62,593 bases of DNA from a virus. Its lineage: Duplodnaviria > Caudoviricetes. Under the pieces are notes generated by a model, which was given only the letters and a program-made list of their open reading frames with translations, was not told where the DNA came from and did not search any database. Both the position numbers and the translations under genes were made by a program. Of this stretch, positions 2,183 to 42,406 are shown piece after piece. Position 1 is the stretch's first letter. Each line of letters begins with the position of its first letter. The stretch covers positions 1-62,593 of IMG/VR virus record IMGVR_UViG_3300036785_000450. One strand, 5' to 3'.

Positions 2183-2183
2183 G

Positions 2184-2251
2184 CGCTAGGCCCAGGAGTC
2201 GAACCCGGCCCGACGGTTTTGGAGACCGTCTCCCGCCCAGCGGCGCCTAAC
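2184..2251 (-). tRNA. tRNA-Trp(CCA)-like gene with a shrunken D-loop
   Basis: Acceptor GTTAGGC/GCCTAGC plus G73; anticodon stem ACGGT/ACCGT with loop CTCCAAA; T-arm CCGGG-TTCGACT-CCTGG; D-stem CCGC/GCGG with a 3-nt loop; no encoded CCA. Confidence 0.7.
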
Positions 2252-27588: not shown

Positions 27589-27813
27589 CTAACTGCTGTA
27601 CTGACTGGCCCTGGAGCCCTTGTTGGTCATCTGATCCGGTGCGTGCGGATAAGGCTGGGTCTGGCCGAAGTGCGTCACCCAGGACTGCCGGAGCAAGCTG
27701 GGCCACTGCCCAGGGTCACGGGAGCCATTACTGGAGTCGTAGAAGGTCGACCAGTTGGTGGCCTTGGGGGAGCGACCTGGGGAGGAACGCACGACTTTTC
27801 GTGCGATGCTCAC
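27589..27813 (-). CDS. Small hypothetical protein
   Basis: 74 aa, GTGA coupling. Confidence 0.65.
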   Translation of the reverse strand: MSIARKVVRSSPGRSPKATNWSTFYDSSNGSRDPGQWPSLLRQSWVTHFGQTQPYPHAPDQMTNKGSRASQYSS

Positions 27814-28079
27814 CGGACCACCCTGACCGGCATCTTGGTAGCCCCCGACTCCAAGGCCCCGCCATACCGATGATGACCGTCGATCATGCGATACCTTCCC
27901 TGGTAGGGAGCCACTAGGGGAGGGGTACCGTCACTGGCCCCCCGTCGAGCGATGTCCATAACCTTGGCGTGATCGAGATGAAGCTGGGTGGCATCGATCC
28001 TGTCCAGGCGCACTGAACGAATAGGCATTTTCGGGTTGGGCTTTTTTGCGAACTGGGCTGTAGACAGGGGCACGCTCAC
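27810..28079 (-). CDS. ParB/Srx-like N-terminal-domain protein with LxxxQF tag
   Basis: ATQ, PPLV, MIDGHHR; N-terminus MSVPLSTAQF; leaderless TAGGCT-N6-GTG. Confidence 0.8.
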   Translation of the reverse strand: MSVPLSTAQFAKKPNPKMPIRSVRLDRIDATQLHLDHAKVMDIARRGASDGTPPLVAPYQGRYRMIDGHHRYGGALESGATKMPVRVVR

Positions 28080-28135
28080 GACCCAAGCCTAGGTGTCGGC
28101 CAGTGGCCCCCCTGGGCCATCTAGGCTGGTCCCTG

Positions 28136-28435
28136 ATGTCGGACACCAACCTCCTAGGCGGGTTCTGCTACCTGTGCAACACCAGCATCGAAGCTGACGT
28201 CCAGGCGCATTTTGCCCAGGAGCACCAGACGTCGGCGCGCAAGCCCAAGGTGCCCATCATGGCCTGGGAGCACCGGATCCAGAACGTCCTGGGCGAGCTA
28301 GCCGAGGTACTGGACAGCCAGGACCGGAACCGCCAGATCGATCTGCTCGACAACGTGGTTCAGGAGCTATACCTCGTTCGGGCCAAGGTGGCCCAACTGA
28401 AGGGCACACCCGTCATGCGAGTGAAAGAAGGATGA
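28136..28435 (+). CDS. C2H2-like zinc-finger protein
   Basis: CYLC...HFAQEH; TAGGCT-N8-ATG. Confidence 0.65.
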   Translation: MSDTNLLGGFCYLCNTSIEADVQAHFAQEHQTSARKPKVPIMAWEHRIQNVLGELAEVLDSQDRNRQIDLLDNVVQELYLVRAKVAQLKGTPVMRVKEG

Positions 28436-28436
28436 C

Positions 28437-28721
28437 ATGGGCGTCGTAGATTGGCGGGCTTGGACGGCACAGGGCGGCGGTCAGATGCCGACTGCCCCCA
28501 ACCCGCCTGGCACCCCGTACGTGCCGAATACCCCGTTCCCTGGGGTGAATCCGATCACCGACCTGATCAACATGACCACGTCGGTCCCGCCCTACCCGAG
28601 CCTGTCCAGCCCCGGCAACTGGGTCACGGTCAAGCCGGTCGACCCCTTCGGAGGCTGGACCGACCAGCAGGAGACCCTCAACAAGACGATGCGCCCGGTA
28701 GTTGCTGGCCTGACCTCGTAG
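28437..28721 (+). CDS. Pro-rich hypothetical protein
   Basis: 94 aa, GAAGGA RBS. Confidence 0.7.
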   Translation: MGVVDWRAWTAQGGGQMPTAPNPPGTPYVPNTPFPGVNPITDLINMTTSVPPYPSLSSPGNWVTVKPVDPFGGWTDQQETLNKTMRPVVAGLTS

Positions 28722-28722
28722 C

Positions 28723-29259
28723 ATGCCCAGCGAGTCCCTCCGGGCCGAGGCGGCCAGGACGGGCCAGACCCTCTATCAGGTCCGTATGTCGCGCCTGCGG
28801 GGGACGGATACGGCCAGCTTCCGGCAGCGGCGGGAGGAGCGCTTCCGCCAGCAGCGCATCCGAACCAAGCGGGCCGAGGAGGGCTTCAGCCACATCCCGT
28901 CACCGGTCGAAGCAGGCTGGGAGGAGCTAGGCCCTGGCTTCCCCCTGACCTCAGAGGAGACGCCCCACGGCGCTCAAGGCCCGTTCGGGCCGAGCCCGGA
29001 CCCGGCCTGGGACTTCTACTGGCCGACCAGGACGATCAACCCGCCCCGGCCCAGGACGCTCCAGGCCCGCTACTCCCGCAACGTCCAGGAGCTACAGGTC
29101 ATCTTCCGAGACGGCACCCCCTGGACCTACTTCGGAGTCCCTCCCAACATCTGGCAGCGGTTCAAGCGCACCGAGTCACCGGGCAAGTACATCAACAACG
29201 TGCTCAACGGCTACGACTACAGCCGGGGTGGATGGGGCAGCATCGTAGGCGAAGGGTGA
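28723..29259 (+). CDS. KTSC-domain protein
   Basis: ARYSRNVQELQVIFRDGTPWTYFGVPPNIWQRFKRTESPGKYINNVL. Confidence 0.8.
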   Translation: MPSESLRAEAARTGQTLYQVRMSRLRGTDTASFRQRREERFRQQRIRTKRAEEGFSHIPSPVEAGWEELGPGFPLTSEETPHGAQGPFGPSPDPAWDFYWPTRTINPPRPRTLQARYSRNVQELQVIFRDGTPWTYFGVPPNIWQRFKRTESPGKYINNVLNGYDYSRGGWGSIVGEG

Positions 29260-29263
29260 GACT

Positions 29264-29458
29264 GTGGCGGCGGAACCCACGAAGGAGCCGTCGAAGCTAC
29301 CGTCCAAGATTGACCAGATCCTGGACGAGATCGACCAGGCCCTAGAGGAGAACGACAAGGTCTTGGATGGAGATCTACCCCGACGACTACGACGACCCCG
29401 AGGAGCGAGAAAATCAGTGGGTACTACCCAGCCTCCCGGACCCTGCCCTCGTTCCTGA
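29264..29458 (+). CDS. Pup-like peptide lacking the C-terminal GGE/Q
   Basis: IDQILDEIDQALEEN resembles the Pup core DDLLDEIDDVLEEN. Confidence 0.55.
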   Translation: MAAEPTKEPSKLPSKIDQILDEIDQALEENDKVLDGDLPRRLRRPRGARKSVGTTQPPGPCPRS

Positions 29459-29729
29459 CAACACCAAGTCATGCTGGATTTTCTACGCCTGGCGAGGTGA
29501 GCCACGACAGGGCCAGTGGCCCGTCACGGTCGCAGTAACCAGGGAGATCACGGCCCCTTGGCGGCGGGGGCTGGGTATCATGCTCAGGAGAAAAGATCGT
29601 GCCAGTGCGGTCGGTGTCTGGATGCGTGGGAAGCCTCCCCGTATCCTGAGTGACGCACCGGCCGAGCAGGACTGGCACGACGTCGTCACCAGAGCGAACG
29701 ACTTGGAGCGAGGACTTGAGCACAACTGA
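29367..29729 (+). CDS. Hypothetical protein
   Basis: 120 aa; T.EITAPWRRG motif. Confidence 0.65.
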   Translation: MEIYPDDYDDPEERENQWVLPSLPDPALVPDNTKSCWIFYAWRGEPRQGQWPVTVAVTREITAPWRRGLGIMLRRKDRASAVGVWMRGKPPRILSDAPAEQDWHDVVTRANDLERGLEHN

Positions 29730-30564
29730 GGCTTGGCAGAAGATCTGCGGGGCTACCAAACTGGGCCGGGCAGGAGTGATCCCCGTCTACGACGGCGAGA
29801 CCTGGCGGCTTTTCCGCAACACCGTGACGATCTGGCCGGGCATGGAGACCGCCGCCGACCCTGACAAGGTCGACAGGCTGCGGGAAAATGTCACCAGCTT
29901 GATGGGGCGCTACGCCGAGACCCTTCCTCAACTGGAGAAGCTGGGGATCCGGGTCAAGACCCTGCTGAACCGGCAGATCAAGACCCACGCCGACGTGGTG
30001 ACCTGGGCTGAGTCCATCTTCAACGTCGGGCCATCCACCGGACTGCTGGTCCATGTGGAAGACGCCCTCGCCATGGCCTACGACGACCTCAAGATCCAGG
30101 TCCAGATGGGGCGGCATCCAGCCTTCGTGCTCCCGGCGGCAGCCCGAGGAGCCGGGGTCAGGCAAACGGTGGACTACACCGTGCCCGGGTCCAAGCTCCG
30201 GTACGGCCCCAGGCATGAGTACACCAAGACGGCCTTCTCTCTACAGGCCCCAGGAGCCGCTCAGAGCCACACAGAGGCGACAAGGCGGGCTCAGGCCCAG
30301 GATGTCCTGAGCGGGGCTGTGCGGGGCCGTGGCAGGCCCAGGAAGGACGGTCTGATGCCCGGCTCCAGGGAGGCCAAAGCAGCCGACCGCAAGAAGCGAG
30401 AGCAGGCCAGGACCAGGCAGCAGCGAGAGCGAGCCGTTCGTTCAATTCCCCCCACACGGGGGGAATTGAGCGAGTCAGAGGAAGAGCTAGCCACCATCAC
30501 CGAGCTTCCCCCTCAGCGTCGGGTACTGGCCCGAGTGGGCAACTCTGTCAATGTCAGTTCTTAG
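29716..30564 (+). CDS. AT-hook-containing protein
   Basis: RGRGRPRK; TTG start with GAGGA RBS. Confidence 0.7.
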   Translation: MSTTEAWQKICGATKLGRAGVIPVYDGETWRLFRNTVTIWPGMETAADPDKVDRLRENVTSLMGRYAETLPQLEKLGIRVKTLLNRQIKTHADVVTWAESIFNVGPSTGLLVHVEDALAMAYDDLKIQVQMGRHPAFVLPAAARGAGVRQTVDYTVPGSKLRYGPRHEYTKTAFSLQAPGAAQSHTEATRRAQAQDVLSGAVRGRGRPRKDGLMPGSREAKAADRKKREQARTRQQRERAVRSIPPTRGELSESEEELATITELPPQRRVLARVGNSVNVSS

Positions 30565-30799
30565 GGAGTGGCGACGGGACAGACGCGACACCGGCTACTG
30601 GAAGAAGGCCAGAGAACGCTCAGGGTCCATGCGAGAGGCTGAGATCGTCTCCGAGATCGACCTGGCCCTCATGGGCGGCGGTCTGATCATCACCCGGTAC
30701 CGGAGCAGTGATCGGAAGACCCAGCTTGACCAACTGAAGGAGCTACGTCTCAGCCTGGAGGCGTGCCTGGGCATGCTGGAGAACGTCCTACCTGAGTGA
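30551..30799 (+). CDS. Hypothetical helical protein
   Basis: 82-aa ORF. Confidence 0.7.
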   Translation: MSVLREWRRDRRDTGYWKKARERSGSMREAEIVSEIDLALMGGGLIITRYRSSDRKTQLDQLKELRLSLEACLGMLENVLPE

Positions 30800-30836
30800 C
30801 GCAAGGGCAGGGTTGGAGCGAACCTAGCGTTGGGGT

Positions 30837-31292
30837 GTGCTCAGTCCTCGACAGTTCGGTGGCCTCAGCGGTGAGTTGCGGAGCAAGGGTGGCTTCACGG
30901 TCAACGTCCACACTGGCGAGCGGCCTACCAGCGGGTACGTGGTGGCTGACCTCCAGGGCGAGAGGAAGATGCCCTTGCGTGGCACCACCGGGCGGGACAT
31001 CCAGGCATATGCCGAGACCAAGGGAGGGAAGCGGCTCACTGGCCCCCACCGGTACCTGGGCGGCTGGGCTGACAAGGGGGCCAAGCCTCAGCAGGCCGTG
31101 CTCGACCGCTCCACCCACTACCCAGAGACACCTTGGGGCCAGAGCAAGTCGTACGTCAGGATGGTGGCGAACTTCCAGAAGGCTGCCTACCACGTCACCA
31201 GCGCCACCAGCGGCACCGACATCGATAACCCGGCACACATGGACGACCCGGTCAAGCGGATGCGGCGGTTCCGGGGAGAGAATGTCGGGTAG
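30837..31292 (+). CDS. Hypothetical protein (GGFT...GY.V...LGGW...LD.S...Q.A pattern) with LxxxQF tag
   Basis: N-terminus MLSPRQF; leaderless TAGCGT-N6-GTG. Confidence 0.75.
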   Translation: MLSPRQFGGLSGELRSKGGFTVNVHTGERPTSGYVVADLQGERKMPLRGTTGRDIQAYAETKGGKRLTGPHRYLGGWADKGAKPQQAVLDRSTHYPETPWGQSKSYVRMVANFQKAAYHVTSATSGTDIDNPAHMDDPVKRMRRFRGENVG

Positions 31293-31479
31293 CTTCCTCG
31301 TAGAGGCGCTTAGCCTCCTCCCGCTGTGCCGCTGACATCGACGGTTCACGCTTGAACTGGTGGCTGTCATACTCGGCTTGCTCAGCCGGGGACATCTGGT
31401 CCCGCCCACGCCAACCATTGTGCGTCAGCCTCTTCCAGACGATGTACCTGTCGTAGCGGGCTGTCTCTTCCTCGTTCAT
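31252..31479 (-). CDS. Hypothetical protein
   Basis: Leaderless TACCTT-N7-ATG. Confidence 0.6.
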   Translation of the reverse strand: MNEEETARYDRYIVWKRLTHNGWRGRDQMSPAEQAEYDSHQFKREPSMSAAQREEAKRLYEEATRHSLPGTAASA

Positions 31480-39637: not shown

Positions 39638-42406
39638 CTATGATGAGGTGGCCGGGCCGATGTCCTCGACCCAGATACTGGTACCGCCAGCCGCTGAGAC
39701 AGTGTTCCCACTGACCTGTTGAGCCACCCCAAGGCCGATAGTCCAACTATGACTGGCGGAATCGGTGGTAGTGATGATTCCGTAAATGGTAAGCGCCAAG
39801 TATCTGGTCGACCCCGCATATATCGAAGCTTGGGAACCAGTGAGAACGGTTGCGGTACTGCTGTCCTGGCAGATGGTACAACGTGATTCTGCCCCCACGA
39901 CCGTGGCAGCGACCAGACAACTGGCCGTAATCTTGAGTCGTCGGTTGGGCACTGTCTGGCATGACACGGTGGTACCAGGGATCAGGGTCAGGGTGGTCCC
40001 GATTGATCCGCTGTTGGCGCCCAGGATAGCGTAGGGGACACTGGGTGACAGCGGCTGGCCCCATGCCACCAGCCACGGCTGTGGCGAACCTGCTGGACCC
40101 TGCGGTCCGGTGGCTCCTGTCGCTCCTGTCGTCCCAGTTGGTCCGGTCGCTCCGGTTGCTCCTGCCGGACCTTGTGGTCCGGTCGGTCCTGTCGGTCCAG
40201 TTACACCTTGAATCCCTTGCAGTCCTGTCGTCCCGGTCGCCCCAGTGGGGCCTGTCGGTCCAGGGACAGTGGAGGCTGCCCCTGTCGGTCCGGTCGGTCC
40301 GGTTGCCCCTGTCGGTCCTATGGCTCCCGAAGCCCCTGTCGGACCGGGAACGACGGAGGCTGCCCCTGTCGGTCCAGTCGGTCCTATGGCTCCCGTGGGG
40401 CCTGTCGGACCAGGAATAACAGAAGCTGCCCCTGTCACTCCGGTTGGTCCGGTTGGCCCTGTCGGTCCGGTCAGACCGATGGCCCCTGTCGATCCAGTAG
40501 GGCCAACCGGACCTCCACCACCGACGAGGTCGATGGTCAGGTAGGTATTTAACGTGTTGACGGTGCAACTAAGGGCAGCTTGCGCCCACGCTTGGCAACT
40601 GATGGTGTCTCCAGCGTTGCACTGAAGGGTGTCAACCGCCTGCGCCCACAGGAACTCACTTGCAGCAGTCGAATACGCAGAATAGTTCTGGACAGAAGCC
40701 ACACCATTATGGACAATGTAAAGACAAAGTACTTGGTTGGCGGCGGTGCTTGAAGCCGCGATCTGGAAGACCACAGCGTACCGGCCACCACGAGGCACGG
40801 TGTAGACACCAGCACTGAAGCCGGAGTCGGTATCCCAGTCCACCGTGTCCATGACAAAGGACGTGGCAACCGTAGGCATGGTGTAGAAAGCAGTGCGGTG
40901 AGCACGCAGGTTAACAGTGGGTGTAGCCGTGCCTGGTAGACCGGCTGACCCCGTCGGACCGGTTGGTCCGGTAGCGCCGGTAGCGCCGGTAGCGCCTGTT
41001 CCAGGTGGTCCTGTGGCGCCGGTTGGACCAGTAGGTCCGGGCACTGAGGACGCCGCCCCAGTTGGTCCGGTAGCGCCTGTAGTTCCAGTCGCACCAGTTG
41101 GCCCAGTGGGACCAATAGGTCCGACAGGACCGCCACCCCCGACCAGATCAATGGTAGCAAAGGAACTATTACCGCTGTTATTGAGAGTAAGACCAGCAAC
41201 ATTCGATGCACACTGGAAAGCAATGGTGTCACCAGCATTGCAGGTAAGGGTGTCGACAACACGGGCATTCAACCATATGCTGGTAGTACTTGACGAGTAC
41301 GAGGAAAAACCCTGTGCTGTAACCGTACCGTTCTTAAGAATAGAGACGGCGGCGTAGTTACTAATGGCCGCACCAGAACCGGTGAATATCTGGAACACGA
41401 CTTTGTACCGACCAGCACTGGGGATAGTGATGACACCAGTACCAGTATTGAGCATGGAGTTGGTGTCCCAATCGGCTGTGTCCATCGGGAGCGTGGACGC
41501 AGCGGGACTGGACAAGGGGTAAGCGGCAGCACGGTGAGCCCGTAGGTTGATGGTAGGTGTAGCCGTACCCGGTAGACCGGTAGGTCCGGTAGGTCCCGCC
41601 GGTCCGACTGGTCCTGTTGCCCCGGATGCTCCGGGTGGTCCTGTCGTCCCTGGTGCTCCTGTTGATCCAGGAATCCCTTGAGCACCCGCTGGACCGGCAG
41701 GCCCAACCGATAACAGATCGATGGCGATGTAGGTGTTCGCACCGCCGGGTTCGCCAGGGATGGCAGGAGTAGACCACGCTGTAGTAGAGAGCGTGTCTCC
41801 GACCTGACAATCGACCGTGTCAACGACCTGCGCCCAGATGTACTCCAGCGTTGTGGTTGTCGAGTAGGCCGAGTAGTTCTGCGAACAGCCCACTCCGTTG
41901 TGCTGAAGGTAAATACCTATCGAGGCATTTGCCACATTAGATGCACCGGACACCTGATACACGACTTGGTATTTACCGGCCTGAGGGCAGGTATAGACAC
42001 CCGTGCTGGAGTTATAGCGACTGTCGGTATCCCAGTCGACAGTATTGAGACTGAAAGGCGCATTAGGGGTGGTACTGAGCGTCCAGTCAAGGGAGCGGTG
42101 TGCCCGCATGCTGACGATGCTTGAACCTGCACCACCGCCACCGCCCCCACCCCCACCTGACTGAGGAAAGTACGTGGGGTAGGAGGGATCACCACCCTGG
42201 AAAATGCACCAGACGGTGTCACCCACCTTGGGCTGCGGCGCAGACGACTGGAGGGAGGGTGCCCAGATGCGGACTGGTTGAGAGCCGAAGATCTGGGGGA
42301 TCCACATCTGGATGCGGCCCTGATTCCCGGGGTCATTGATGGCGTAGACCTTGGCGGCGTATACACCAGCGTAGGTGGACGTAGTCGGGGGCGAGCTAAG
42401 AGACAT
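39638..42406 (-). CDS. Baseplate spike (gpV/gp5 OB-fold) fused to three C1q-like domains and collagen-like repeats
   Basis: YAGVY.AKV...NDP..GRI...IPQIFG...[18 protein letters not shown]; three RAHR...DWDT...G.Y.V domains; long GxT/GPT runs. Confidence 0.85.

Follow-up and report, generated by a model that had tools for sequence, protein, structure and literature searches.

The locus described here raises the question of whether a small gene of an uncultured phage encodes a peptide that imitates Pup and, if so, what such a peptide could do in the host cell. The Pup-proteasome system corresponds in bacteria to ubiquitin-dependent degradation, and phage inhibitors of host proteases and unfoldases exist, for example T4 PinA, which is directed against Lon. 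The original prediction, made from the DNA sequence, had described the product of this gene as a phage-encoded Pup mimic that lacks the end needed for ligation, and had named ARC/Mpa, PafA and Dop as possible targets. We find that the gene is real and conserved, that its product resembles the central helix of Pup and that both ends of Pup are absent from it. Our preferred reading, which we put forward tentatively and short of calling it probable, is that the peptide is a Pup-helix mimic that can be neither ligated nor threaded and that acts as a receptor blocker by occupying ARC. Binding to ARC, competition at this receptor and a benefit to the phage are what we infer from these features.

The window, by which we mean the whole stretch of DNA analysed, is a 62,593-bp virus record from IMG/VR with an estimated completeness of 53% and a GC content of about 62%. 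A Pfam scan of 59 window proteins identified genes for the tail sheath, tail tube and baseplate, for a tail lysozyme and for an amidase; dop, pafA, prcB, prcA and arc families were not found among the same 59 proteins. The peptide is phage-encoded, as had been claimed. The window also contains a lone tRNA-Trp (CCA) gene (2183–2251, minus strand) and a gene for a 922-amino-acid tail protein (39638–42406, minus strand), in which a baseplate-spike OB domain is combined with C1q, BclA_C and collagen repeats.

The small gene (29264–29458, plus strand) was called as an open reading frame for 64 amino acids with a GTG start codon, and it has orthologues in 11 other contigs. A Shine–Dalgarno-like GAAGGG can be read from the sequence 7 nt before the GTG (29251–29256, plus strand), and in the relatives GGGGAG-type sites precede ATG starts. 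In its first 34 codons the gene has a GC3 of 0.88 and a GC2 of 0.26, values that are coding-like and similar to those of the surrounding genes. The 3′ part of the gene overlaps the next gene, which encodes a protein of 120 amino acids (p120), and in this stretch GC3 is 0.33 in the small frame versus 0.73 in the p120 frame. Minus-strand frames over the helix region reach a GC3 of at most 0.69 in all loci examined, and an antisense gene is therefore not indicated. The protein itself, which contains KIDQILDEIDQALEEN, consists of a disordered basic N terminus (residues 1–11), one helix (residues 12–36) and a basic, Arg/Pro-rich tail (residues 37–64). It is basic overall, whereas true Pup is acidic.

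The neighbours of the small gene are phage genes without an assigned function. The upstream gene (28723–29259, plus strand) encodes a KTSC domain protein (Pfam KTSC, E 2.7e-12), is syntenic in all relatives and ends 4 nt ahead of the GTG. p120 (29367–29729, plus strand) follows in the +1 frame relative to the small gene, and after it comes a gene (29650–30564, plus strand) for a DUF6424 protein (Pfam DUF6424, E 5.7e-13) with an AT-hook-like RGRPRKDG sequence, which is likewise syntenic and belongs to the conserved block; p120 and the DUF6424 gene show an apparent overlap of about 50–80 nt. Together with p110, in which we noted a CxxC...H..H-like motif, and p94, these genes form a six-gene block (p110, p94, KTSC, small ORF, p120 and DUF6424; window 28103–30564) that is syntenic in 12 of 12 contigs. 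A promoter and terminator scan of positions 27700–31400 gave no signal above shuffles.

The 11 other contigs carrying the block were found by pattern scans of IMG/VR and belong to one myovirus clade; one of them is estimated to be 98% complete at 114.5 kb. Using the window peptide as the query, tblastn matched eight of the 11 at E ≤ 1e-3 and missed three (L003, L013 and L014), but direct translation revealed that the small frame is open and carries the same motif in all 12 contigs, with its stop codon at an unchanged position. Eight of the 12 genes start with ATG and four with GTG, mostly 2–5 nt past the stop codon of the KTSC gene; for L002 and L011 the start is uncertain because the frame stays open further upstream. 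The C terminus reads ...PCPRS in the window protein, and relatives end in LSS, LGS or PRS. Since the peptide of L006 is the same as that of L005, L006 was left out and the alignments hold 11 sequences. In this alignment I23, D24, L27, E29 and N30 do not vary, and D17 and L20 hardly do; these columns, which align with Pup, make up the core motif D17-x2-L20-x2-I23-D24-x2-L27-x-E29-N30 (29312–29353, plus strand). The invariant residues are encoded by two to four synonymous codons, and over a 17-codon helix block mean pN is 0.29 and mean pS 0.76, giving a pN/pS of 0.38 (55 pairs).

Further members of the family came from a search of 1.84 billion representative sequences with an HMM built from the 11 sequences, which gave 16 matches at E ≤ 1e-3. 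Ten of these are small proteins of 56–79 amino acids with the same build, and five are long repeat proteins; in the two that were inspected, ID..L.EN is part of BRC-like and GIMAP-like repeats. The remaining match, P0014, is a predicted 157-amino-acid protein with two true Pup units. It has a hydrophobic N terminus followed by the two units in tandem, the second ending in GGQ, and represents an unusual duplicated Pup. Relatives of the phage peptide have up to about ten extra N-terminal residues, and the tail motif P.RRLRRPRG..GTT is kept even in the most distant of them. A metagenome scan with the family pattern returned only a known contig and two genuine pup genes (tblastn E 4e-6 and 6e-6). 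Other searches were negative. Near and distant searches with the locus DNA found no match among 50,697 phage records; against the same records, tblastn of p120, the DUF6424 protein and true Pup found none either, and tblastn of the small protein gave only chance-level matches to Bacillus phages (E 4), so that no isolated phage in this collection has the family, nor Pup at E ≤ 0.01. No relative of the single small-protein sequence turned up among 5.8 billion proteins in a word-based search, the ESM Atlas gave no usable match, and PHROGs gave none for the small protein or p120. Viral scans with the KTSC protein alone and with the distant member P0010 were also without result, and the one obtained with the distant member P0016 (L017) was a spurious, off-frame match.

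How strong is the likeness to Pup? It had been stated that the helix closely matches the conserved Pup helix, and this holds for the family better than for the single sequence. The Pfam Pup model (PF05639) matches the window protein with E 3.4e-4, and a six-frame scan of the whole record revealed it as the sole Pup match there; however, its 21.9 bits do not reach the curated cut-off of 27, nor do the 20.1 bits with TIGR03687 reach 41.45, and the Pfam cut-off is reached by none of 19 family members. In a related record (G004), a second, weak match to the Pup HMM was seen in a 234-amino-acid ORF with DEIDEVL (L022, 1141–1845, minus strand; E 0.01), which is probably due to chance. Nine of the 11 orthologues and 15 of the 19 family members match Pfam Pup at E ≤ 1, with a best value of 8.6e-5, and TIGR03687, matched by seven of the 11 orthologues, is the only NCBIfam family matched. 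When the window protein alone was compared with 177,635 PDB sequences using phmmer, four Pup chains came out on top with E values of just 0.11–0.8; with a profile of the 11 orthologues, the top six matches in the same set were all Pup chains, the best at E 1.4e-5. Lastly, an hhalign comparison of the 19 family members with 25 true Pups, in which family columns 9–38 were laid on Pup 24–53, gave a score of 53.0 (E 6.9e-11, probability 97%). The controls reached 29.7 (82%) with reversed Pup and 28.1 (75%) with the reversed phage family, and 200 column shuffles had a mean of 8.6, a standard deviation of 2.0 and a maximum of 17.5. Since even the reversed sequences gave probabilities of 75–82%, acidic amphipathic helices evidently align easily; as judged from these profile comparisons, the family-level match to Pup is well above this background.

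The ease with which such helices align is also the basis of the rival explanation that survives best, namely that the peptide contains an unrelated amphipathic acidic helix of the IDEAL type (ID.AL.EN), which has another phage or host partner or associates with itself, and that the likeness to Pup is a short heptad convergence without functional meaning. We regard this as a real possibility, if a somewhat doubtful one. It would account for scores that stay under every curated cut-off and for reversed controls that climb to 28–30, and ID..L.EN does occur in the unrelated repeat proteins mentioned above. Pfam IDEAL (PF08858) matches the window protein as well as Pup does (E 3.3e-4; 20.7 bits, where the cut-off of 22 is not reached), and the position of the gene within a conserved six-gene block, in tight overlap with p120, suggests a role inside the block. 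On the other hand, the real hhalign score is nearly twice that of the reversed controls with a P-value lower by six orders of magnitude, Pup tops three independent libraries, and six of the seven conserved positions are invariant Pup residues, the E-N cap included. IDEAL, for its part, is matched by six of the 11 orthologues and seven of the 19 members at E ≤ 1, but by none of the 25 true Pups.

We therefore return to the reading of the peptide as a Pup-helix mimic, for which it matters which part of Pup has been kept. In the register of the alignment, window residue n corresponds to Pup residue n + 20, and D17, L20, I23, D24, L27, E29 and N30 align with Pup D37, L40, I43, D44, L47, E49 and N50; the central helix motif of Pup (D37, L40, I43, D44, L47 and N50) is thus present as D17, L20, I23, D24, L27 and N30, and of the seven positions that the phage family conserves, six correspond to Pup residues without variation among 25 Pups. 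The phage family has not retained the invariant D41, E42 and E48 of Pup, and it shows no likeness to the N-terminal half of the helix that Pup forms on Mpa. In the published account of the Mpa complex, Pup 21–51 forms one helix that lies antiparallel on the Mpa coiled coil, and the disordered N-terminal segment ahead of this helix, which in bound Pup faces the pore, threads into it (PMC8755798). In-cell NMR identified L39, E42, I43, D44, D45, L47, E49 and A51 as the Pup helix residues most affected by Mpa (PMC3769308). The Pup-like part of the phage peptide accordingly covers roughly the Mpa/ARC-binding helix.

The two ends of Pup are missing. Residue 1 of the phage peptide corresponds to about Pup 21, and the peptide thus begins approximately where the Pup helix begins and does not have the long N-terminal threader; the disordered stretch of about 20 residues that precedes the helix in Pup is absent, and in the structural model the phage helix begins at residue 12. 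At the other end, the alignment with Pup stops at about Pup 53 and is followed by unrelated basic sequence. Because the peptide diverges right past the end of the helix, it has neither the second helix nor GG[QE]: FV..YVQK is absent, as is the whole C-terminal segment A51, E52, F54, V55 and Y58–G63, all of which is invariant in the 25 Pups, and GG[QE] is absent from the window protein and its relatives, whereas 25 of 25 true Pups end in GGQ or GGE. The claim that the ligation end is missing is thus borne out. With both ends gone, the peptide should be neither ligatable by PafA nor pulled into the pore of the ATPase. Judged by the features that define the Pup family, the peptide is not a member, and a mimic reduced to the Pup helix describes it best.

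The proposed mechanism is as follows. The small gene would give rise to a free, mostly disordered peptide, whose single helix imitates or descends from the central Pup helix, the one with which Pup lies on the coiled coil at the N terminus of the proteasomal ATPase ARC/Mpa. During infection, the peptide would sit on the coiled coils of the host ARC and compete with pupylated proteins for this receptor, and occupation of ARC would slow Pup-dependent degradation. An AlphaFold2 model of the small protein has one helix at residues 12–36 between disordered ends, with pLDDT values of 83–89 over residues 11–30. For the complex, residues 1–40 (with the family alignment) were combined with two copies of residues 1–100 of ARC_STRCO, the ARC of Streptomyces coelicolor, as a stand-in for that of the host. 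The predicted complex scored 0.57 (0.57, 0.59 and 0.52 in the individual runs), the best of three controls scoring 0.01, and the runs share at least 76% of their contacts with a partner pLDDT of at least 66. Of 157 solved complexes, 116 reach the mark passed here, as do two of 215 mismatched pairs; 18 of the 157 solved complexes and both of the passing mismatches reach it with scores of 0.60 or less. Since Pup–Mpa complexes have been solved, the result may merely restate the likeness to Pup or a memory of these structures, and we take it to lend weak support to binding of the ARC coiled coil. The idea that the peptide engages ARC/Mpa is partly supported: its conserved residues coincide with that half of the Pup helix which changes upon Mpa binding (PMC3769308), and the model, with its substitute receptor, adds the weak support just described.

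As had been noted originally, the small gene overlaps p120 by 92 nt (29367–29458, plus strand), and this dual-coding stretch specifies the basic tail of the small protein in one frame and the acidic, disordered N terminus of p120 in the other, so that the same DNA encodes P.RRLRRPRG and PD.YDDPEE, respectively. p120 is composed of this N terminus, a small beta domain (residues ~30–90) and a C-terminal helix and matches no known family; the best fold match had a Z score of only 4.6, and no fold was assigned. Its first approximately 25 residues are predicted to be disordered, yet they are highly conserved. Where the p120 amino acid is conserved, the mean codon entropy at strict four-fold sites is 0.69 (n = 8) inside the overlap versus 1.38 (n = 20) outside (one-sided Mann–Whitney p 0.007), and with six-fold families included it is 0.72 (n = 10) versus 1.45 (n = 28; p 0.0017). 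Ten of 11 loci retain the rare codons GTA and CTA, whose nucleotides are read as G-T-T in the small frame. These codons are part of TGGGTACTACCCA (29418–29430, plus strand), a palindrome or small hairpin that encodes W-V-L-P in one frame and G-T-T in the other; it is present in 10 of the 11 aligned loci and has a single exact copy in the window, and the constraint on it could reflect a small hairpin in the RNA or a site bound by a protein instead of coding. At the end of the overlap, GTT CCT GA (29451–29458, plus strand) contains two T-ending four-fold codons of p120 which yield the last Ser and the TGA stop of the small gene, and both GTT and CCT are kept in 11 of 11 loci. Taken together, codon usage suggests that both frames of the overlap are constrained. 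The stop context UCC-UGA-C (window 29454–29459) is identical in 11 of 11 loci, and a +1 shift at this position would enter p120 at codon 31. The conserved overlap, with a basic and an acidic tail made from the same DNA, is in itself a neat case of overprinting.

This arrangement allows for a second rival explanation, according to which the peptide is an adaptor or built-in degron: the helix would dock on ARC and the basic tail would hold a cargo, possibly the acidic N terminus of p120, without pupylation, or else a +1 shift at UCC-UGA-C would fuse the peptide to the beta domain of p120. It would fit with a tail whose conservation extends to the most distant members, with the reduced synonymous variation of p120 and the retention of GTA, CTA and the stop-making GTT CCT in the overlap, with the +1 position of the p120 frame and with a p120 N terminus that is conserved despite its predicted disorder; moreover, linear Pup fusions are reported to be degraded by the Mpa-proteasome (PMC8755798). 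However, since the threader is missing, it is hard to see how the peptide, or a cargo on its C-terminal side, would get into the pore, and the constraint on GTA and CTA could serve the hairpin in TGGGTACTACCCA. A frameshift is not needed to make p120, since p120 has an ATG or TTG start codon of its own, no more than three codons away from the aligned site, in 11 of 11 aligned loci, and the HMM search revealed no in-frame fusion of the helix to p120. We therefore consider an adaptor function unlikely. The same holds, with similarly long odds against it, for the most far-reaching version of these ideas, in which the locus would be the first viral tool against the bacterial Pup-proteasome: the basic and the acidic tail would pair, or a +1 shift at UCC-UGA-C would fuse them, and the Pup-like helix would wire a pair of phage proteins onto the host ARC without any tagging enzyme.

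PafA and Dop, which had been named as further targets, have lost ground. A helix that fills the Pup groove of PafA and/or Dop might block tagging or untagging, but both enzymes are described as gripping Pup as two short orthogonal helices (PMC8223512), and the phage peptide has neither the second helix nor the C terminus, so that inhibition of the pupylation enzymes strikes us as very unlikely. Equally improbable is the suggestion that the frame is what remains of a piece of pup once captured and now decaying, or a non-gene kept open by the composition of its neighbours, in spite of the GC3 of just 0.33 in the overlap and the failure of the word-based search to find a relative, because the ORF is kept with a start codon and a ribosome-binding site in 12 of 12 contigs, purifying selection is evident from the pN and pS values of the helix block, GC3 is 0.88 in the unique part and no higher than 0.69 on the minus strand, two unusual T-ending codons hold the position of the stop in 11 of 11 loci, the overlapped tail is constrained as well, and ten more representatives of the family exist.

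For the blocking of ARC by a Pup-helix mimic, which remains our preferred reading, the nature of the host is of importance. Judging from the relatives of its proteins, the phage probably infects an actinobacterium (Actinomycetota). The sheath is closest to those of Streptomyces phages of 112–116 kb (36.5–37.4% identity, 98% coverage), and the amidase lysin matched 419 phage records, every one of them from a phage of Mycobacterium, Gordonia, Rhodococcus, Nocardia or Tsukamurella. The helicase matched 316 records, 160 of which are from phages of Gordonia, Arthrobacter, Microbacterium or Rhodococcus, in a collection that is rich in actinophages. Other genes were uninformative in this respect: a scan of genome contigs with dCTP deaminase gave 463 relatives, all at 28–43% identity and mostly from alphaproteobacterial MAGs, and the ArdC-like protein encoded in this phage genome (10434–11567, plus strand; ArdcN and a zincin-like metallopeptidase domain) had broad matches among plasmids at 33–38% identity. 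No prophage or host match was obtained in a genome-contig scan with the DUF6424 alignment.

A literature search of a full-text index, covering listings and abstracts, found no paper on a phage Pup mimic or on a virus that interferes with the Pup-proteasome. Like Pup (PF05639, TIGR03687; 3m91_B, 3m9d_G and 7px9_G), the phage peptide has about 64 residues, is disordered except for one inducible helix and carries D-x2-L-x2-ID-x2-L-x-EN at the same spacing. Unlike Pup, it has neither GG[QE], nor the second helix with FV..YVQK, nor the threader of about 20 residues; its ends are basic instead of acidic, it scores below the curated cut-offs, and its gene is carried by a phage in which dop, pafA and prcBA are missing from the neighbourhood. 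With IDEAL (PF08858) it shares the ID.AL core, but it falls below the cut-off of that family too, and fewer members are matched by IDEAL than by Pup; as IDEAL is a short helical motif without a known function, it offers no mechanism. Closer to the proposed function are linear Pup fusions such as PupDHFR, for which it has been described that a genetically encoded Pup helix suffices for recruitment to Mpa without ligation (PMC8755798). These fusions keep the N-terminal threader of Pup, which the phage peptide does not have.

If our reading is correct, a natural helix-only copy of Pup would show that phages target the Pup-proteasome pathway, and it would define the Pup residues that are sufficient for docking. 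As a genetically encoded tool of minimal size, it could also serve to probe or inhibit the ARC/Mpa receptor. In its proposed role the peptide resembles T4 PinA, in that a small phage protein would neutralize an ATP-dependent protease of the host, albeit with a different fold and directed against a different target.
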